NCBI GenBank assembly: GCA_034722435.1
Contig: JAYENX010000037.1
Location: forward strand, 1-11,543
Source: Nanobdellota archaeon
GTDB taxonomy: Archaea; Nanobdellota; Nanobdellia; Woesearchaeales; JAHWHD01
Direction of reading: 5' to 3'
DNA length: 11,543 nt
Of this stretch, positions 3 to 11,543 are shown piece by piece; position 1 is the stretch's first letter; each line of letters opens with the position of its first letter. Under the pieces are notes generated by a model, which was given only the letters and a program-made list of their open reading frames with translations, was not told where the DNA came from and made no database searches. Made by a program: the position numbers and the translations under genes.

Positions 3-179
3 AAGAAAAAACTTGTAACGACACTTCTTGATGAACATGATGGCGTAAGTTCTTTATTTCGTTTACCTGATTACAATGGCGAAGACGCATATCTTCAATG
101 TTTTCATCCTGATGTCGATAAACAAGAAAGACCTCCTAAAGAATCAATTGTACATTATGAGCCTAAAATGTTCACATAG
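3..179 (+). CDS. 3' end of a hypothetical protein, truncated by the window edge (...KKKLVTTLLDEHDGVSSLFRLPDYNGEDAYLQCFHPDVDKQERPPKESIVHYEPKMFT*)
   Basis: Frame +3 is open from base 3 to TAG at 177-179 with protein-like composition. It overlaps the argS stop convergently by 8 nt. No family recognised. Confidence 0.55.
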   Translation, partial: KKKLVTTLLDEHDGVSSLFRLPDYNGEDAYLQCFHPDVDKQERPPKESIVHYEPKMFT

Positions 180-1863
180 CTTTTGGCGCTTCTATATCTA
201 ACAACTTCAAACCATTCACTATAACTTGTTTAACACATTCTAATAAGAAAAGTCTAGCTTTCTTTTGTTTATCTTCGGCTTTCAATATTGTGATGTTTTG
301 ATAGAACTCGTTAAAAGCTTGACAAAGATCAATCAAGTACCTACATATAATTGAGGGTTTATAATGCTTGGCAGCATCAACAACCACTGACGGATATTTT
401 CCAAGGATATTTATTATTTTTAGTTCTTCATCAGTTTCATACGATTTGAAATCTACTACAACATTACCAGTTTTCACTTTTTTAAGAACTGAATTAATCC
501 TTGCATGCGTATATTGAACATACGGTCCTGTTTCTCCTTCTAAACTTAAAGATTCGTTAGGATCGTAGACCATATCTTTTGAAGGGTCCATTTTTAATAT
601 GAAAAATTTAAGCGCACCCATACCAACCATTTTAGCTCTTTTCTCAATTTGTTTAGATGTAAGGTTATCTCCGTGTCTTATCTCAATCTCGACTTTTGCA
701 GCATTCACAACCTCATTAACAAGATCATCCGCATCTACAACTGTCCCTTCTCGAGATTTCATTCTACCCTCTGGAAGGTATACCATTCCATAACTTAAAT
801 GATAACATTTCTTTGCCCAAGAATGTCCTAACAATTCAAGAATTTTAAACAGTTGTTGAAAGTGTAAATTCTGTTCATTACCAACAACATACACTGACGA
901 TGTAAACTTGAAATCTTTATGTTTCATAACTGCCAGATACAAATCTTGTGTCATGTAAAGTGTTGTTCCATCTGCTCTTAACAAAAACTTATTTGGCATT
1001 TTATACTTTTCAAGATCTGCATATACTGCTCCTGTCTCGTCCTTAACAAGAAGTCCTTTCTTGAACGCATTATTTACAAGGTCTCTTCCATAAGTATAAA
1101 TCTCGCTTTCATAATATTCTTTTTTGAAAGATACATTAAACTTTTTATATGTTTCATTGAACCCGACGAGAGCCCACTTTCGCATCTTTTTCCATAACTT
1201 AAGAGTTTCTTTATCTCCTGATTCCCATTTACGTAATAATTCTTGAGCTTCTTCTTCAAGACCTGGCATATCTTTAGCTTTCTGGTTAAACATAACATAA
1301 TAATCTCCTACAAAAAAGTCTCCCTTTCTATCAGGCTCTTTATTCTTGCCCCATTTTTGATAAGCGAGCATCGACTTACAAATGTGCACGCCCCTATCAT
1401 TTACAAGATTTACTTGTACAACATCATTACCTATTTCTTCTAATAGCAATGAGCACGATTTACCCAGTACCATGTTTCGTACATGTCCAAGGTGTAAAGG
1501 TTTATTGGTGTTGGGTGCGGGATATTCTATCACAATTCTTTCTTTGCCAATATGTGATTTACCATAGAACTCTGCTTCTTTTTGTATTGCGAGAAGTACA
1601 TCTTTAGCTTGCTCTTTCTTGTTAACATAAAAATTAAGATACGGGCCGATAGTTTTTACTTCGGCTAAAATATTATTTTTCTTAATCTTTCCAGCTAACT
1701 CTTCAGCAATCTTGTTAGGGGCCTTCTTCATACTCTTGGCAAGAACAAAACACGGAAACGCATAATCTCCCATCTTACTATCTGGCGGTACCTCTAAACT
1801 AATATCTTTCAACTTTGTAACTCTCTTAATTTCTTTTACAATATATTTTTCAAACTTGTTCAT
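172..1863 (-). CDS. argS: Arginine--tRNA ligase (class I), 563 aa
   Basis: N-terminal PPDSKMGDYAFPCF and GPYLNF motifs, HIGH-type PNTNKPLHLGHVRN, RADGTTLYMTQDL, KMSKS-like RMKSREG, GETGPYVQYTHARI, and a DALR anticodon-binding C-terminus. Confidence 0.98.
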   Translation of the reverse strand: MNKFEKYIVKEIKRVTKLKDISLEVPPDSKMGDYAFPCFVLAKSMKKAPNKIAEELAGKIKKNNILAEVKTIGPYLNFYVNKKEQAKDVLLAIQKEAEFYGKSHIGKERIVIEYPAPNTNKPLHLGHVRNMVLGKSCSLLLEEIGNDVVQVNLVNDRGVHICKSMLAYQKWGKNKEPDRKGDFFVGDYYVMFNQKAKDMPGLEEEAQELLRKWESGDKETLKLWKKMRKWALVGFNETYKKFNVSFKKEYYESEIYTYGRDLVNNAFKKGLLVKDETGAVYADLEKYKMPNKFLLRADGTTLYMTQDLYLAVMKHKDFKFTSSVYVVGNEQNLHFQQLFKILELLGHSWAKKCYHLSYGMVYLPEGRMKSREGTVVDADDLVNEVVNAAKVEIEIRHGDNLTSKQIEKRAKMVGMGALKFFILKMDPSKDMVYDPNESLSLEGETGPYVQYTHARINSVLKKVKTGNVVVDFKSYETDEELKIINILGKYPSVVVDAAKHYKPSIICRYLIDLCQAFNEFYQNITILKAEDKQKKARLFLLECVKQVIVNGLKLLDIEAPKAM

Positions 1864-1886
1864 AGTATGAAATTATAGAAATATAG

Positions 1887-1900
1887 TTTATTAATCTTTC
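1887..1900 (-). promoter_or_regulatory. Putative BRE-TATA promoter of argS (GAAAGATTAATAAA)
   Basis: Purine-rich BRE plus TATA-like box ending about 24 nt before the ATG at 1863, with no SD. Consistent with a leaderless mRNA. Confidence 0.55.
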
Positions 1901-1915
1901 TAAACCTCTTTCAAT

Positions 1916-1927
1916 AAAACTTAAATA
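1916..1927 (+). promoter_or_regulatory. Putative BRE-TATA promoter of the DUF1653 gene (AAAACTTAAATA)
   Basis: TTAAATA box about 22 nt before the ATG at 1950. Divergent from the argS promoter. Confidence 0.45.
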
Positions 1928-1949
1928 TCTCCTCTTTCCTAATATTAGT

Positions 1950-2174
1950 ATGGAATCAATACACGCACAGGGAATATACAAACACTATAAAGGTAATTAT
2001 TACATAGTACTTGGTATTGGAACTCATTTTGAAACTGGTGAAGAACTGGTTGTATACACGCCTTTGAAAGATAGAAATAAAATTTGGGTACGACCGCTCA
2101 AAATGTTTTTAGAAGTTGTAAACATGGATGGCGTTTTCGTTAACCGTTTCACATATGCAAGACAAGCACTTTAA
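1950..2174 (+). CDS. DUF1653 family protein, 74 aa
   Basis: GIYKHYKGNYY...HFETGEELVVY...IWVRPLKMF matches the DUF1653 signature (G-x-Y-x-H-Y-K-G...H-S-E-T-x-E-x-L-V-V-Y...W-V-R-P-x-x-M-F). Confidence 0.9.
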   Translation: MESIHAQGIYKHYKGNYYIVLGIGTHFETGEELVVYTPLKDRNKIWVRPLKMFLEVVNMDGVFVNRFTYARQAL

Positions 2175-2187
2175 TTTTATTTATTTT

Positions 2188-2697
2188 CTATACAAAATCT
2201 TTAATATTATGCTTTCTCCATTCCCAGAACAACCAACTTATTAAGATAATTGCGTCTGCCCATACTGCGGCTGCCGTGTTAAACACTGTTGGACAATAAT
2301 TAAACGCAAACGGATAAAAAAATTGGTATCCTCCGAACGCACAATCTAGTAACAGATGCGACAATAAACCTATCCCGATAAACAAAGAGACCATCCCCGA
2401 TTTATGCCAAATGTGATACTTCTTTTGACTTCTTTTATTTTTCGCTTTATTCTTATAATACTTTAAAAATATAACTCCTATAAAAATTGCAATTAACGGC
2501 CACCACACCCAGTGAGTCACTGTTCCATGTAAATTCATTCCAAGCAACGCACCTATCGGAATATCAATATCAGGCACTAAAGCAAAAAATCCTGTGAGAT
2601 AAACAAAGAACAAACTAAACTTCTTTTTAGCAAAATAATGTCTGTATATATCAACAGCTATTATTGCTAATAATACATGTGTAACTGCATGTGCCAT
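2188..2697 (-). CDS. Membrane-bound metal-dependent hydrolase (YdjM/DUF457-like), 169 aa
   Basis: HAVTH, LVPDIDI, HGTVTH and SHLLLD motifs among hydrophobic helices. The ATG at 2697 directly abuts the TAG of the upstream B3/4 gene. Confidence 0.85.
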   Translation of the reverse strand: MAHAVTHVLLAIIAVDIYRHYFAKKKFSLFFVYLTGFFALVPDIDIPIGALLGMNLHGTVTHWVWWPLIAIFIGVIFLKYYKNKAKNKRSQKKYHIWHKSGMVSLFIGIGLLSHLLLDCAFGGYQFFYPFAFNYCPTVFNTAAAVWADAIILISWLFWEWRKHNIKDFV

Positions 2698-3396
2698 CTA
2701 TATCCTCATCGAAGTGTTAACAAAATTAAGAATTTTATATCTTATTTTCCCGCCTACAAACGTTTTAAGCAACGAAATATATTCTTTCATTACACTTTCT
2801 AACACTTGATACGTTACAGGTGGTAACCCGTCAAAATAAATTATCGCGTTCTGAGTGTGATGCGTTATTTTAGTTTTTTCACTTTCATGCCAGCTCCATC
2901 TTCGAGCAAGCACACCGCCACCATCCATGAACACAATTTCTCCTGATTTAGGATGTTCTATCTTGGTGTGTTCAGGTCTAAGTACTTCCCATCCTTTGGC
3001 AATTTTAACATTAATATCTCCTTTGACTTTATCAAGATCATCTCCTCCAATAGGAATCATGTCCTTTAACATAAAATATCTATAAAGATCAACCAAGTTA
3101 TTTTTTAACTTTACATCCCTTTTAAGAAGAACGTCATGTAAAAGGTTTTCAACTGCTGTGTGATACTTTGGAACTTTAACTTTACTCCCATACCCTTTTT
3201 TCCAATTGGTTAAATATGGCGACTTAGAGAACCCTTTCAATACATATTTATCCCTGCAATACTGCTGAATATCTTTTAGCATCTTACTAATCATAGAATA
3301 CGAACTTCGCGTATTATCCATATCTTTGATTACTATAACGCCAATGTTCAACTTAGAAAACTTTCCGAATACCTCTTTTTCAATACTTAACTTCAT
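2698..3396 (-). CDS. Stand-alone B3/4 domain protein (PheRS beta editing-domain-like), 232 aa
   Basis: LVDLY, IPIGGDDLDK, GEIVFMD and VLARRWSWHESEKTKIT match the stand-alone B3/4 family pattern (LVDxYN, PxGGEDLDK, GEVVYxD, LCRRWNWR, TKIT). Confidence 0.87.
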   Translation of the reverse strand: MKLSIEKEVFGKFSKLNIGVIVIKDMDNTRSSYSMISKMLKDIQQYCRDKYVLKGFSKSPYLTNWKKGYGSKVKVPKYHTAVENLLHDVLLKRDVKLKNNLVDLYRYFMLKDMIPIGGDDLDKVKGDINVKIAKGWEVLRPEHTKIEHPKSGEIVFMDGGGVLARRWSWHESEKTKITHHTQNAIIYFDGLPPVTYQVLESVMKEYISLLKTFVGGKIRYKILNFVNTSMRI

Positions 3397-3420: not shown

Positions 3421-3434
3421 ATTTATAAACTTAA
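3421..3434 (-). promoter_or_regulatory. Putative BRE-TATA promoter of the B3/4-hydrolase unit (TTAAGTTTATAAAT)
   Basis: TTTATAAA at 3422-3429, about 25 nt before the ATG at 3396, with no SD. Confidence 0.6.
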
Positions 3435-4670: not shown

Positions 4671-4684
4671 ATTTATAAATCTTT
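4671..4684 (-). promoter_or_regulatory. Putative BRE-TATA promoter of the DUF5679-like gene (AAAGATTTATAAAT)
   Basis: TTTATAAA at 4672-4679 preceded by AAAGA on the minus strand. Confidence 0.6.
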
Positions 4685-5492: not shown

Positions 5493-5506
5493 ATTTATAA
5501 ATCTTA
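5493..5506 (-). promoter_or_regulatory. Putative BRE-TATA promoter of rps3ae (TAAGATTTATAAAT)
   Basis: TTTATAAA at 5494-5501, about 23 nt before the ATG at 5470, inside the 39-nt gap after the gyrB stop. Confidence 0.6.
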
Positions 5507-5509
5507 TGA

Positions 5510-7468
<1,959 letters not shown>

Positions 7469-7799: not shown

Positions 7800-8747
7800 A
7801 TGGTTGAATATAGAAAATTAATAAGTTTTGGAAAATCGTCATATGTGATTTCATTACCTAAAGCATGGGTACTAAAAAATAAACTTGAGAAAGGAAGTTT
7901 AATTGCTGTCACAGAAACTACTGAGAACTTACTTCTTAGTCCTAAGCTTGATTTAGATAAACGTGAATCTAAGAAAATAATTATTAACGTGGATAATAAA
8001 GATTTTAGACGTATTAAAAGAGAGATAATCGCTGCATATATAAATAACAATCAGACGATAATCTTGACTGGGAAAGAGTTAAAGAATAAATCTGCAGACT
8101 TAAGAGGTATACTTCATAACATTATGGCCTTGGAAATCATGGAACAGACCTCTGACAGAGTCGTAGCAAAAGATTTCCTTAATATGAAAAAACTACAATT
8201 TAGTAGTTTAATTCGTAAGATGGATGTTATGTTGCGATCTATGTTATCTGATACCAAGATTTGTTTTAAGGAGGATGTTTATGACCATATCAGGCAAAGA
8301 GAGGCGGATGTTGACAGGCTTGCTTTCTTAATATATCGAATGGTCAAGTTCTCTTTGATGAATCCATCAGAGGTCCGTGATTTGCATGTAACTCCTAACG
8401 ACCTTCTCAATTATTGGTGGATGGCCAATAATCTTGAGAAAGCTACTGATAAGATTAAACATCTTGCTAAGCACATCACCGATATTAAGGTTGGTCCTAA
8501 AATTCAATCTCAACTCGTTGAGTTCTTGACAATTTTAGAGGGAAATCTTTCAATGACTATGAAGGCTTATTACTCTAATAACAAGGAATTGGCTTTTAAG
8601 GCAGCCAATGAAAAGGAGCCGTTAATTAAGGGTTGCGTAGCTTTTGTTGAGAAAAACTGGAAAATACAATATTTACCAGAACTTCTTGAACATATTAAAG
8701 AGACTGCTATTGCAATACACAATATTGGAAGAACTGTTTATTCTTGA
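7800..8747 (+). CDS. Archaeal AbrB/SpoVT DNA-binding plus PhoU-like domain regulator (phosphate uptake regulator family), 315 aa
   Basis: N-terminal RKLISFGKSSYVISLPKAWV...LEKGS is the AbrB-type signature. IIAAYINN, READVDRLAFL and NLEKATDK are PhoU-like helices. G-rich SD at about 7786-7792. Confidence 0.87.
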   Translation: MVEYRKLISFGKSSYVISLPKAWVLKNKLEKGSLIAVTETTENLLLSPKLDLDKRESKKIIINVDNKDFRRIKREIIAAYINNNQTIILTGKELKNKSADLRGILHNIMALEIMEQTSDRVVAKDFLNMKKLQFSSLIRKMDVMLRSMLSDTKICFKEDVYDHIRQREADVDRLAFLIYRMVKFSLMNPSEVRDLHVTPNDLLNYWWMANNLEKATDKIKHLAKHITDIKVGPKIQSQLVEFLTILEGNLSMTMKAYYSNNKELAFKAANEKEPLIKGCVAFVEKNWKIQYLPELLEHIKETAIAIHNIGRTVYS

Positions 8748-8760
8748 TTTTTCTTTTTTT
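8748..8760 (+). terminator. Oligo-T terminator candidate after the PhoU-like gene
   Basis: TTTTTCTTTTTTT immediately after the TGA at 8745-8747. Confidence 0.55.
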
Positions 8761-8783
8761 CTTACTTTATGATAGTTAATTTG

Positions 8784-8797
8784 GAAACCTTTATAAA
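8784..8797 (+). promoter_or_regulatory. Putative BRE-TATA promoter of the kinase-PHP unit (GAAACCTTTATAAA)
   Basis: Matches the window-wide consensus. SD GGGTGA at 8820-8825 precedes the TTG at 8833 by 7 nt. Confidence 0.6.
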
Positions 8798-8832
8798 TGC
8801 CTCGTGGATATCTAGAATAGGGTGACATTTAT

Positions 8833-10449
8833 TTGAAATTCGAGGATTCAAAGACATTAAACAATCCTAATTATTGGAAAAAAACTTTAAATCTGGATAG
8901 TTTGCCAAATATAAAATCCAGTAAATTGTCAGGGCTGCAGACTTCTTTACGTTCTGGAGTATACAGAGTTGATCTTGAATATCTCGTTGCGACAAATAAT
9001 CCTTCTGATAAATCTGAAAAATTTGTGAAATCTGTAGTTGTTAAGATTATGGGTAAGAGTAAGCATAATCTTGGTATAGACCGTAAAAGTTATAGATCGC
9101 AAAACCCTGCAGATTATGCGAAAAAACCTTATGATATTCTTAGCAAGAGATTGCTTGCAGTTCCACAGCTTCTTGATTATAATCCGCGAGAAGGATTTTT
9201 AGTTTTAGAACATTTGCCTGGACCTGTGACTGATGAAGCTTTTGAGGGTCCAACTGCTGACATTGAACTATCTTTAATCAATTCTAGAATGCATACTCTT
9301 GAGAACATAATTGATAAGTCGTCTGTTGTAAATATTAAATCTGTAACTGAACTTGAAAAACTCCAAGATTGGAAAGCATACATAATCAAAGGCTGCTTAG
9401 CAAACATTGCGGATGTTCATGTATATGCGACTGACTCATTAGAAGATTTTACAGATGCTGCCGGGAACATCCGATTAAGGCGACCAAGAATCTCACAATA
9501 TGGGAAAGGTAGATCTGCAACAAATCTCGGTAAGTCTCCGTGTTCAAATGAAGACGCTCTTGACTCGTTTAAGAATATGCATGATTCTTTTAGGTGGATA
9601 ATTGCACGTGAAATTATGAATGCAAAAATGATAAATCAAGAAGCTGCGCAACATTATAAATTAGATCATGATTCTACTGGCGATTTAGGACTATTTTTAG
9701 ATTCAATTCTGGGACGATTCAAATCTTTGGATGATATGGTTGTTGACGCAGGAGATAATTATCCTCACCATTTTTCGCGTAACGTAATTAAATGTGCACA
9801 ACGAAAAAAAGATATTGAAAAAACTTTTTTGCTTGACTGGGATAGAATTATGTACAGGAAACGTGCTCTAGGTTTGATGCAGTTTCTTTGTTCTCCTGTA
9901 CTTGAACTTGATGGTTCGGAAATTGTAAAATATGTCAAAGAATATCAGTCAATGACTGAAGCTCGTGTTAAAACTCTTAAACCCGCTCGTAGAAAAAAGT
10001 TAAAACCAATTTTCGAGAACTCTGCTGAATTTTTTAAAGATGCCATGCTTCTAGGAATATATGAGGCTGGATTTCATGGGCCCGCTCTTGGATGTCGTCA
10101 CGAGATATATCATTTGAGAAGTTATAGGAAACTTCTTAAAAGAAAAAAGATGATCCTTCCTATCAAGTTACAATATTCTGGAGACGGAACTGCTAAATTG
10201 GTTAATCCTGAATTTATTTCAAAGAAGGGTTTAAGTGACTCAAATACTAATGTTAAGACAAACTTTCGTTATGATTGTTATGCTAATAAATTTTTACTCG
10301 GAGGATATCGTGCTGTTGCCACCTCATTATATAATGTGGTGATGGACCACTCTAATTTCATTTCTGAACAGGGGGAGCTTGCAGCTCTATACGATTTTAT
10401 GAAGAATCATAAGGTGAAAGGGGTGTCTGTATCTATTTTTGAAAAATGA
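8833..10449 (+). CDS. Atypical protein-kinase-like (APH/choline-kinase/CAK fold) phosphotransferase-like protein, 538 aa, TTG start
   Basis: SLRSGVYRV (N-lobe), VVVK71I, AVPQLLDYNPREGFLVLEHLPG (strongly APH/AmgK-like), LANIADVH, catalytic-loop-like DAGD308NYPHH and metal-binding LLD335WD. The next in-frame ATG (M73) would remove the N-lobe start, which supports the TTG. Confidence 0.72.
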   Translation: MKFEDSKTLNNPNYWKKTLNLDSLPNIKSSKLSGLQTSLRSGVYRVDLEYLVATNNPSDKSEKFVKSVVVKIMGKSKHNLGIDRKSYRSQNPADYAKKPYDILSKRLLAVPQLLDYNPREGFLVLEHLPGPVTDEAFEGPTADIELSLINSRMHTLENIIDKSSVVNIKSVTELEKLQDWKAYIIKGCLANIADVHVYATDSLEDFTDAAGNIRLRRPRISQYGKGRSATNLGKSPCSNEDALDSFKNMHDSFRWIIAREIMNAKMINQEAAQHYKLDHDSTGDLGLFLDSILGRFKSLDDMVVDAGDNYPHHFSRNVIKCAQRKKDIEKTFLLDWDRIMYRKRALGLMQFLCSPVLELDGSEIVKYVKEYQSMTEARVKTLKPARRKKLKPIFENSAEFFKDAMLLGIYEAGFHGPALGCRHEIYHLRSYRKLLKRKKMILPIKLQYSGDGTAKLVNPEFISKKGLSDSNTNVKTNFRYDCYANKFLLGGYRAVATSLYNVVMDHSNFISEQGELAALYDFMKNHKVKGVSVSIFEK

Positions 10450-11426
10450 AACCTAAACTATACGCAACACATGTGCATACCACACATTCAGATGGCCTAG
10501 CTTTTCCTAAAGACATTGCTAAAATTATAAAACAATCTAAAGAATTTGAAGGCGTTATCACCTCTGATCATGATACTCTTACATCTATTATCGAAATTGA
10601 GAGCGAATGTAGAAGGGCTGGTGTTATAGGGATTGGAGCTGTTGAGTTTGGTTGCAAATTCGAATCTCGAGATGAAATTCTTGTTGAGGTTTTAGGTATA
10701 GGGGTTAATCCTCAAGACGCTTCCTTAATTGATATTTGTCAAAGAAATGCGGATTTTAGAGAGAATAGGATGTATGAAATGTTAGAACGACTTAATTATA
10801 ATGAAAGTTTAAATGTTAGTATGCAAGACATAAAACGAGTTATGGATGGTGATGTCCCTATAAGTAGAAACCATTTAGCGCAAGTTCTTGTAAAAAAAGG
10901 AAAAGCTGATACTGTTAATACAGCATTTGAACTTTATTTGGAACCAGAACCGTTTTCACCTTACAGTTGTTTTGTCAGGCGTGATGCTGTACCAATCAAA
11001 GAAGTAATTAAGTCTATCATAAAAGCAGGCGGCGTAGTTGATATTGCACACCCTGCAAATATTGCAATGGAACACCCTGATATGCAGAAACCTTACATGG
11101 ATTATCTAATATCTGAAGCTAAAAAAGGACATATACATGCTGTTGATATTTGTTATCCTTACGAATGGCAAGGTAAATTGGGGACTTTGACACAAGGTGC
11201 GGCAAAAGAACATAATAAGAGATGGAAGAATAACTTAGCAAGGCTAAGGAAGGTTTCTTCTATTTATATTGTCGGACTTTCTTCAATTGATTGGCATGGG
11301 AAACCTAAAGGTTTACCCCTTACTTCTATGCAATTCGCAAATACGAGACATACTATAGATAAACTTATCAGATATTGTTCTAAAGCGAAAGAATATAGAA
11401 AACAAATTAAAGAATTAAAAAAATAA
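10446..11426 (+). CDS. PHP-domain metal-dependent phosphoesterase (TrpH/YciV-like subfamily), 326 aa
   Basis: HVHTTHSDG, SDHDT, AVE, SRNHLAQVLV, IAHP and SIDWHG. ATGA overlap with the kinase-like gene. Confidence 0.88.
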   Translation: MKPKLYATHVHTTHSDGLAFPKDIAKIIKQSKEFEGVITSDHDTLTSIIEIESECRRAGVIGIGAVEFGCKFESRDEILVEVLGIGVNPQDASLIDICQRNADFRENRMYEMLERLNYNESLNVSMQDIKRVMDGDVPISRNHLAQVLVKKGKADTVNTAFELYLEPEPFSPYSCFVRRDAVPIKEVIKSIIKAGGVVDIAHPANIAMEHPDMQKPYMDYLISEAKKGHIHAVDICYPYEWQGKLGTLTQGAAKEHNKRWKNNLARLRKVSSIYIVGLSSIDWHGKPKGLPLTSMQFANTRHTIDKLIRYCSKAKEYRKQIKELKK

Positions 11427-11441
11427 ATAAATTAAAAAATT

Positions 11442-11543
11442 CTATTCAAGTCCACTTATGACTGGAGCTCTGTTAACGTCTTTAACAGTTACAGATATTG
11501 TTTGACTATCTTCTGCACCCATTACATCTGATACAGTTACTGT
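11442..11543 (-). CDS. C-terminal end of an Ig/cadherin-like surface-type protein, truncated by the window edge (...TVTVSDVMGAEDSQTISVTVKDVNRAPVISGLE*)
   Basis: Open frame to TAG at 11442-11444. TVTVSD-x5-SQTISVTVxDVNRAPVI is the usual F-G strand plus linker signature of cadherin-like/Big repeats. Confidence 0.7.
   Translation of the reverse strand, partial: TVTVSDVMGAEDSQTISVTVKDVNRAPVISGLE

Follow-up and report, generated by a model that had tools for sequence, protein, structure and literature searches.

A three-gene cassette encoding an AbrB-PhoU regulator, an orphan kinase-like protein and a TrpH-type PHP phosphoesterase in a family of Woesearchaeales

The cassette and its setting

Contig JAYENX010000037.1 of assembly GCA_034722435.1, from a Nanobdellota archaeon of the order Woesearchaeales, was analysed in its entirety and its 11,543 nucleotides (nt) are referred to here as the window. 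The window is one whole contig (C37, 11.5 kb) of the source genome, G000, which is 1.3 Mb in size, 33% GC and 94.5% complete. The subject of this report is a set of three consecutive plus-strand genes towards its end, encoding a transcriptional regulator, a kinase-like protein and a PHP-type phosphoesterase, the last two of which are joined by overlapping stop and start codons:

7800-8747, plus strand: AbrB/SpoVT and PhoU transcription-factor gene, 315 amino acids (aa), first gene of the cassette (Pfam PhoU E 2.5e-7, MazE/AbrB-type E 3e-5)
8833-10449, plus strand: P0001, orphan kinase-like protein, 538 aa, TTG start
10446-11426, plus strand: P0002, TrpH/YciV-type PHP phosphoesterase, 326 aa
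10446-10449, plus strand: ATGA stop/start overlap joining the 538-aa and 326-aa open reading frames

The second and third of these open reading frames (ORFs) lie where a first-pass annotation had placed them, and its proposal was that a kinase-fold enzyme and a PHP phosphoesterase make up a two-gene unit. The comparisons described below enlarge that unit, which consists of three genes, the regulator, the kinase-like protein and the PHP protein, and they show the constant partner of the kinase-like gene to be the AbrB-PhoU regulator.

The same arrangement was found in two other genomes of the family. G002 is represented by the public NCBI contig JAHWHG010000008.1 (locus L001, Candidatus Woesearchaeota), while G001 is a genome of the same genus as G000 that is available as an unpublished assembly, on which the third syntenic copy, its ATGA overlap, the discordance between block and flank and the ESM Atlas result for its 652-aa protein all rest. 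The G002 layout is gyrB, AbrB-PhoU, a 530-aa homologue of P0001 (here P0004), a 346-aa PHP protein (33% identical to P0002), a convergent PKD/Big_9 gene and dnaJ-dnaK. The layout of G001 is gyrB, AbrB-PhoU, a 652-aa ORF, a 335-aa PHP protein (22%) overlapping that ORF by ATGA, PKD/Big_9 and dnaJ. Regulator orthologues occupy the same position in both and are 70% identical in G002 and 48% in G001, and the position of the cassette between gyrB and the PKD/dnaJ region is fixed in the three genomes. No BLAST similarity to P0001 was found for the 652-aa protein of G001; it is APH-like by ESM Atlas features (0.93), it carries SHGEAVLHHF...YDFD in place of the AGDNYPHHF...LDWD of P0001, and hhalign brings the two into register (P 0.034). 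The overlap of the kinase-like and PHP genes, ATGA in G001 and ATGACTAA in G002, is kept in all three genomes despite a divergence of the kinase-like gene between G000 and G001 that exceeds the reach of BLAST.

The three genes also share a history that differs from that of their neighbour. For gyrB, the one flanking gene on which the comparison of flanks across the three genomes was made, G000 is 84.7% identical to G001 and 78.1% identical to G002, the order that taxonomy predicts. This order is reversed for every gene of the cassette (G000/G001 versus G000/G002), with values of 48 versus 69.5% for the regulator, approximately 0 versus 51% for the kinase-like protein and 22 versus 33% for the PHP protein, indicating that the three genes diverge, or are exchanged, as one block. 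The kinase-like and PHP genes had been described in the first-pass annotation as a self-contained operon. They do have a promoter-like element of their own and are coupled by their overlap, but the upstream AbrB-PhoU gene travels and diverges with them and so the pair is not fully self-contained.

The oligo-T tract, the TATA-like element, the Shine-Dalgarno-like sequence and the ATGA overlap previously noted were all found in the sequence, as was the convergent gene downstream:

8748-8763, plus strand: oligo-T tract (TTTTTCTTTTTTTCTT), read from the sequence, directly after the stop codon of the regulator gene
8784-8797, plus strand: B recognition element (BRE)/TATA-like element GAAACCTTTATAAA (GAAACC TTTATAAA), 36 nt upstream of the TTG start
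8821-8825, plus strand: Shine-Dalgarno-like GGTGA, 7 nt ahead of the TTG
3422-3429, 4672-4679, 5494-5501, 7445-7452 and 8790-8797: copies of TTTATAAA
11442-11543, minus strand: 3' end of the convergent PKD/Big_9-type gene, which bounds the cassette; its translation ends in VTVKDVNRAPVISGLE followed by the stop

The T-tract is a candidate archaeal terminator, at which transcription of the regulator gene may end. A TATA-like box and a G-rich Shine-Dalgarno sequence are also present in the equivalent intergenic region of both G002 and G001. The window contains five copies of the palindromic octamer TTTATAAA, where 1.7 are expected and 5 of 200 shuffles reach five, and at least four of the five copies sit 24-52 nt upstream of a gene start, which makes the TATA/promoter reading of 8784-8797 credible. 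The octamer looks like the consensus TATA box of the source organism. The TTG start of P0001 is backed by an end-to-end alignment with P0004 from residue 1. Ahead of the PHP start at 10446 no Shine-Dalgarno sequence was found, so translation of the PHP gene probably depends on the overlap, by termination and reinitiation. The product of 11442-11543 shares 79-81% of its residues with the C-terminal ends of the PKD proteins found in synteny in G001 and G002, and its PKD/Big_9 label rests on the Pfam match of the G001 copy.

The remainder of the window carries, in order and all on the minus strand, argS and the genes for a YdjM-type membrane protein, a stand-alone B3/4 protein and ribosomal protein S3Ae, then gyrB, after which the plus-strand cassette begins. 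In G001 a 365-aa ORF (L034:10641-11738, minus strand) lies between gyrB and the S3Ae gene where the window has 40 nt, and this difference in spacing is a local insertion or deletion between genomes of the same genus. No compositional anomaly was seen at the cassette (GC 0.34-0.36, compared with 0.28-0.36 across the window) and no mobile-element genes were found near it. A horizontal-transfer or island reading was dropped on these two grounds.

The kinase-like protein and the phosphoesterase

P0001 is an orphan. It has no match in Pfam, even at E 10, nor in NCBIfam, PADLOC or PHROGs, nothing was found for it in the PDB with either the single sequence or a profile, and P0004 likewise has no Pfam match at E 10. 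The only homologue identified is P0004 itself (50% identity). P0004 alone was returned both when 5.8 billion proteins were searched by word index, with the single sequence and with a 7-row alignment, and when 1.84 billion cluster representatives were searched exhaustively with a profile. Out of about 15 billion proteins, only P0001 and P0004 can thus be recognised as belonging to this family.

Several lines of evidence nevertheless point indirectly to the kinase fold proposed in the first-pass annotation. The ESM Atlas features score for P0001 is 0.96 and the ten best family-bearing matches are all APH-type, so that its nearest language-model neighbours are small-molecule (APH/choline-kinase-type) kinases and not Hanks kinases. 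The Atlas's own ESM model (predicted template modelling score, pTM, 0.68) aligns with APH-family models over 311-367 residues, with template modelling (TM) scores of 0.50-0.57 when normalised to the query and as high as 0.83 when normalised to the target. The predicted order of the N-terminal 130 residues is strand-strand-strand-helix-strand-strand-hinge, which fits a kinase N-lobe. Motifs follow in the expected order, namely an SGVYRV loop, VVVKI with Lys71, a hinge-like LVLEHLPG, DAGDNYPHHFSRN with Asp308 and LLDWDR with Asp335, all of which are invariant in P0004. Inspection of the sequence thus supplies candidates for both the beta-3 lysine (Lys71) and the Mg-binding aspartate (Asp335):

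9043-9045, plus strand: Lys71 in VVVKIMGK, candidate beta-3 ATP-binding lysine at the end of a predicted strand, assigned by inspection
9745-9783, plus strand: catalytic-loop-like DAGDNYPHHFSRN, residues 305-317, with Asp308 as candidate base and His313 at the position of the APH/protein-kinase Asn
9829-9846, plus strand: LLDWDR, residues 333-338, candidate Mg-binding Asp motif (DFG/IDxE equivalent), invariant in P0004

The catalytic loop departs from the canonical H-x-D-x4-N. It reads A-G-D308-N-Y-P-H-H313, lacking the leading His and having a His at D+5. The departure is a recurrent one, since the acid-x4-His pattern is found again in the positional homologue from another family, G009 (HND...H), and in G001 (HGE...H). 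DAGDNYPHHFSRN aligns with SHNDTTLRH of G009, and with SHGEAVLHHF of G001 by eye and in the hhalign register, while LLDWDR aligns with WYDLEK of G009 and QYDLDG of G018. An acidic residue, a His five residues on and a D-x-[DE] motif are consequently shared by G000 and G002, by G009, as the alignment shows, and by G001, as judged by eye and from the hhalign register. The retention of candidate catalytic residues across such divergent members argues for an active site under selection. Profile comparison linked the G000/G002 pair to the G009 homologue with a probability of 89% (hhalign, P 2e-6); direct comparison of the P0001 family with the APH and Pkinase paralogues of G000 was not significant. 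P0001 is cytosolic, with no receiver or membrane part. Taken together, motifs and language-model evidence make an APH-like kinase fold likely for this protein.

P0002 is more readily placed, and the TrpH/YciV/Cv1693 subfamily suggested for it in the first-pass annotation proved correct. Its family matches are to NCBIfam NF047791 (RNase RNM; E 6e-24, 84.8 bits against a cut-off of 375) and NF041577 (3',5'-bisphosphate phosphatase; E 7e-22, 77.8 bits against a cut-off of 400), and it scores 24.4 against the Pfam PHP gathering score of 26.4. The PDB matches 7ug9, 9etk, 2yb1 and 3e0f were obtained at E 2e-10 to 4e-9, all PDB sequence matches being TrpH/Cv1693-type, and PHP protein phosphatases of the CpsB/YwqE type were not among its Pfam and NCBIfam matches at E <= 0.1. 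It is the sole TrpH-like ORF found in the G000 genome (phmmer E <= 0.01). The metal ligands of RNase AM, including the Mn-beta ligand His83, have been listed, and its Arg107, Arg110, Arg141 and Phe161 bury the 5'-phosphate and stack on the base (PMC9410882). These positions can be located in P0002 as follows:

10470-10493, plus strand: HxH...D metal motif His9, His11 and Asp16, equivalent to His13, His15 and Asp20 of RNase AM; invariant in alignment A4
10686-10688, plus strand: Glu81, which aligns with the metal ligand His83 in RNase AM
10758-10769, plus strand: Arg105 and Arg108 of the 5'-phosphate pocket, equivalent to Arg107 and Arg110 of RNase AM
11289-11297, plus strand: DxH motif with Asp282 and His284, the last two metal ligands, equivalent to Asp255 and His257 of RNase AM; invariant in alignments A4 and A5

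Eight of the nine ligands of the trinuclear site are kept (H9, H11, D16, H42, E67, H202, D282 and H284). The ninth position is occupied by Glu81, which is common to all three cassette PHPs where the six ordinary TrpH relatives aligned have His, and which could itself serve as the ninth metal ligand. Arg141 and the stacking Phe161 of P0002 align with Arg141 and Phe161 of RNase AM, and R105, R141 and F161 are invariant in alignment A5; all three pocket arginines and the stacking Phe, and with them the pocket of the insertion domain, are therefore retained. Arg201 of RNase AM, the sulfate-binding, transition-state arginine, is replaced by Asn205 in P0002 and by Lys in G001. Two additions also set P0002 apart, a stretch of approximately 40 aa preceding the DxH motif and a C-terminal tail rich in lysine. 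Judged by these residues, P0002 is very probably an active metal phosphoesterase whose pocket points to a 5'-phosphorylated nucleotide or RNA end, with Glu81 and Asn205 leaving room for a shifted substrate.

The regulator and its kinase-like partner across the order

Among the 61 genomes of the order, 33 have an AbrB-PhoU orthologue, which often lies close to gyrB. Twelve further loci were inspected, giving 15 in all with those of G000, G001 and G002, and at seven of the 15 a kinase-like ORF lies directly downstream of the regulator gene (G000, G001, G002, G009, G018, G019 and G046). The last four genomes belong to four other families, and in each a large ORF lacking a Pfam assignment immediately follows the regulator. 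The G009 protein (628 aa) was recovered by hmmsearch (E 1.5e-8, in a small set) and has the motifs SHNDTTLRH...YDLE. That of G018 (750 aa) combines an N-terminal receiver domain with HADIENTEH...YDLD, and the presence of a receiver domain points to signalling. G019 encodes a 465-aa protein with the canonical APH motifs NDCHPLN...ITDLF, whose own group is linked to genuine APH paralogues of G000 (hhalign P 5e-6), and the G046 protein (481 aa) matches Pfam APH at E 0.012 and has a VDFG...D motif. A 7-row profile run over 301 genomes of the order added one further genome, G146. The constant pairing is hence that of the regulator with a kinase-like protein, and it occurs in several families of the order.

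Two details of these loci may be recorded. The receiver-fused gene of G018 (L037:2763-5015, minus strand) overlaps the regulator gene, and a transglutaminase-like protein (1725-2711, minus strand) stands where the PHP protein would; the kinase-like protein of G019 (L035:3615-5012, minus strand) has an inserted ScpB/Tfb2-like winged-helix segment at residues ~132-208. The idea that the large ORFs following AbrB-PhoU genes are phosphate transporters was rejected, the ORF of G030 being the only membrane-rich one and the others soluble and kinase-like.

The PHP gene does not share this distribution, and a general kinase/PHP pairing, as implied by the first-pass annotation, was not borne out by a check of gene neighbourhoods. 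No PHP gene stands beside the kinase-like gene at the loci of the four other families, and in three of the five such genomes checked, G009 (99% complete), G019 (98%) and G146 (91%), a PHP domain is absent altogether. Conversely, 15 of the order's 61 genomes yielded TrpH-like PHPs, and no APH-like neighbour was detected at 16 other TrpH-like loci of the order (flanks of ~1.5 kb) or at 80 bacterial ones (5 kb) using small home-made hidden Markov models (HMMs), by which weak kinases could be missed; a single Pkinase-like neighbour was seen among the same 16 and 80 loci. Relatives elsewhere without PHP suggest that the phosphoesterase is a lineage-specific addition to a regulator-kinase cassette. 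A different partner is coupled to an ordinary TrpH-like PHP in G045 (L009), where a 472-aa ORF with no Pfam match (78-1496, plus strand) and a HIT-like H-L-H-M-K motif overlaps the PHP gene (1471-2355, plus strand).

Paralogues of the regulator elsewhere in G000 have neighbours of a similar kind. One of them faces, at C12:8167-16944 (L065:1668-10445), a convergent array made up of four Ser/Thr Pkinase paralogues (438-526 aa), which are in tandem and overlap, and then a HAD hydrolase and an IMPase-HAD fusion; this is a second kinase/phosphatase/AbrB-PhoU neighbourhood in the genome. The third paralogue, at C23:17524-24412 (L066), lies beside a DHH/DHHA1 (DHH-CID, RecJ/GAN-like) phosphoesterase, and its flanks hold two ORFs of ~450 aa lacking Pfam matches as well as a 428-aa ORF that matches PHP faintly (E 0.033). 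The genome, at 1.3 Mb, yields 19 APH-profile matches and contains, at C5:12080-18619, a single open frame of 2987 aa with several separate APH-like segments that looks like a giant multi-kinase-like protein.

A possible phospho-switch, its alternatives and its relatives

The arrangement is tentatively read as a regulator-linked phospho-switch in which the kinase-like protein writes a phosphate and the PHP protein removes it, a reading that we regard as quite possible, if somewhat short of probable. Using a nucleotide triphosphate, P0001 would phosphorylate a target connected with the regulator, which might be AbrB-PhoU or else a ligand of nucleotide type that AbrB-PhoU reads, and P0002 would hydrolyse that phosphoester and reset the switch. 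Production of P0002 would be tied to that of P0001 by the stop/start coupling, and the PHP would have been recruited only in this family. The comparisons above show how the genes are built, coupled and kept in synteny, that they diverge together and that P0002 retains its catalytic and pocket residues; kinase fold and activity, a shared substrate and a regulatory role are inferred. A signalling cassette is favoured over a fixed metabolic pathway by a transcription factor as invariable partner, by the receiver domain fused to the G018 protein, by a PHP that may be absent and by the co-divergence of the genes. There is precedent for two of the components, as phosphorylation by Hanks kinases modulates the binding of AbrB to DNA (Kobir 2014, cited in PMC6333020) and the PHP-family enzyme Php1 is the cognate phosphatase of a kinase (PMC6759763).

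Other observations weigh against the phospho-switch. Regarding the fold, the Atlas features and model, the motifs and the hhalign links are in agreement, but the AlphaFold2 (AF2) models of P0001 are poor, with predicted local distance difference test (pLDDT) values of 46 from two sequences and 42 from eight. Searches with these models gave no usable match: Foldseek of the low-pLDDT models against the PDB returned none at E <= 0.001, and a VIA search produced mostly helical-hairpin noise, its sole whole-length row, 3csv_A (putative APH), having a Z of 7.3 that is within the noise. A catalytic loop that lacks the canonical Asn, with Glu for Asp in G001, could mean an altered metal site, other chemistry or a pseudokinase. 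Since the three syntenic genomes all come from one family, their shared layout could simply be inherited, and the T-tract and separate promoter between the regulator and the kinase-like gene weaken a strict operon link. Lastly, retention of the 5'-phosphate pocket of RNase AM/Cv1693 means that a nucleotide or RNA substrate fits better than a phosphoprotein; what is marked may accordingly be a ligand of nucleotide type, or the two proteins may work one after the other.

The second of these options amounts to a separate explanation, a nucleotide or RNA-end pathway in which P0001 would add a 5'-phosphate to 5'-OH RNA, a nucleoside or a 3'-NMP, creating the substrate of the PHP protein, which would then remove a 3'-phosphate or degrade the RNA 5' to 3' into 5'-NMPs. 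Under local regulation by AbrB-PhoU, the pathway would serve a host-dependent archaeon for salvage or RNA processing. This pathway has a minor but real chance of being correct. Among families and PDB entries P0002 is matched best by RNase RNM/AM and the 3',5'-bisphosphate phosphatase, the pocket arginines and Phe are kept in what is the sole TrpH-like ORF found in the genome, and the nearest language-model neighbours of P0001 are small-molecule kinases. Moreover, kinase-licensed 5'-3' exonucleolysis occurs in eukaryotes, in Grc3-Rat1. Set against this, G009, G019 and G146 retain kinase-like relatives despite having no PHP domain, which together with the TrpH loci that lack kinases indicates that the two steps are not an obligate pathway. 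The receiver fusion of G018 and the constant transcription-factor partner suggest signalling instead, Glu81 and Asn205 suggest a shifted substrate for the cassette PHP, and the polynucleotide kinases known to us are P-loop enzymes, not kinase-fold ones.

It is unlikely, in our estimation, that the two proteins share no chemistry at all, P0001 being a non-catalytic kinase-derived or helical scaffold or sensor and P0002 a housekeeping RNase AM or pAp phosphatase that is merely co-transcribed. Such an explanation would account for the missing catalytic Asn, the change of Asp to Glu in G001, the lack of a Pfam APH match at E 10 and of a confident kinase fold in AF2, and the confinement of the kinase-PHP adjacency to one family. 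It does not sit well with the preservation of the overlap in three genomes despite saturating divergence, nor with the conservation of the candidate catalytic residues in very distant members, where few other positions are kept. With TrpH-like PHPs in only 15 of the 61 genomes, theirs is not a universal housekeeping function in this order.

A conflict module, with P0001 as a HipA-like toxin phosphorylating an essential target, the AbrB-type protein as antitoxin or autoregulator and the PHP protein as antidote, is very unlikely: the extreme turnover of the kinase-like and PHP genes, the discordance of the whole block with gyrB and taxonomy, the AbrB/MazE-type N-terminal domain of the regulator and the resemblance of the gene order to that of HipBST (regulator, kinase, third component) would suit it, but neither P0001 nor the regulator has a PADLOC or PHROG match, P0002 has only a weak one to a PHROG DNA polymerase (PHP domain, E 0.0012), no HipA match was found in Pfam, no mobile genes lie nearby, the core-genome position is fixed in three genomes, and the 315-aa AbrB-PhoU protein is conserved in the order, unlike small labile antitoxins.

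The phospho-switch can be taken one step further, to an undescribed archaeal signalling device in which an atypical kinase-fold enzyme, with His in place of Asn, and an RNase AM-like PHP protein make and destroy a signal read by AbrB-PhoU. This more specific form is doubtful, and equally so is the nature it would give the signal, that of a phosphorylated nucleotide-type molecule or a phospho-mark on the regulator itself. To our knowledge, the control of AbrB-PhoU proteins has not been established and DPANN archaea have few recognisable signalling systems. Were the device to exist, it would provide the first defined input pathway for the large archaeal family of PhoU-type regulators and a DPANN-specific substitute for two-component systems. 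AbrB-PhoU and other PhoU-type proteins form a multi-paralogue family of archaeal transcription factors, among the most populated in Pyrococcus furiosus (PMC6316755). Should the His-for-Asn loop be active, it would extend the chemistry of the kinase fold; if not, P0001 would represent a pseudokinase partnered with a nucleotide phosphoesterase. Furthermore, a cassette that is fixed in position and racing in sequence offers a concrete three-protein test system, made up of small, soluble and expressible proteins, and it demonstrates that synteny can place orphan proteins, the G001 counterpart being unrecognisable by BLAST yet occupying the same slot with the same start/stop overlap.

As the first-pass annotation had anticipated, the kinase-PHP pair matches no characterised pathway in Pfam, NCBIfam, PADLOC, PHROGs, the PDB or the literature searched, in which no publication on a DPANN kinase/PhoU/PHP module was found. 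The parts belong to known superfamilies and what is new at the centre is an orphan kinase-like family.

The closest relatives of the individual parts are well characterised. P0002 resembles E. coli RNase AM (YciV/TrpH, 7UG9) and Chromobacterium violaceum Cv1693 (2YB1) in its PHP barrel and insertion domain and shares with them eight trinuclear-site ligands and the residues of the 5'-phosphate/base pocket, whereas it scores far below the equivalog cut-offs and has Glu for His83 and Asn for Arg201. Compared with the 80 bacterial TrpH loci, coupling by overlap to a kinase-like gene is seen only for the cassette PHP. P0001 is similar to APH/choline-kinase-like proteins (PF01636 clan, e.g. 3CSV) in motif order and language-model neighbours, and differs from them in having ~200 extra residues, a long helical hairpin at 140-200 and His313 for Asn, and in giving no HMM match.

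Two known systems resemble the cassette in design. In Ptk1/Php1 of Porphyromonas gingivalis, which pairs a BY-kinase with a CpsB/YwqE-type PHP tyrosine phosphatase, a kinase and a PHP protein are likewise encoded together and a write/erase cycle of phosphate is proposed (PMC6759763); such kinases are P-loop BY-kinases and such phosphatases belong to the CpsB/YwqE branch, whereas the cassette combines an APH-type kinase-like protein with the nucleotide-acting TrpH branch. In Bacillus subtilis, as the work of Kobir et al. (2014) is cited in PMC6333020, AbrB is under the control of the Hanks-type kinases PrkC, PrkD and YabT, so that an AbrB-fold regulator is set by a protein-kinase-like enzyme. 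The B. subtilis genes are unlinked and AbrB there has no PhoU part, whereas in the cassette an AbrB-PhoU fusion is encoded immediately upstream of the kinase-like gene and its phosphorylation is hypothesised.

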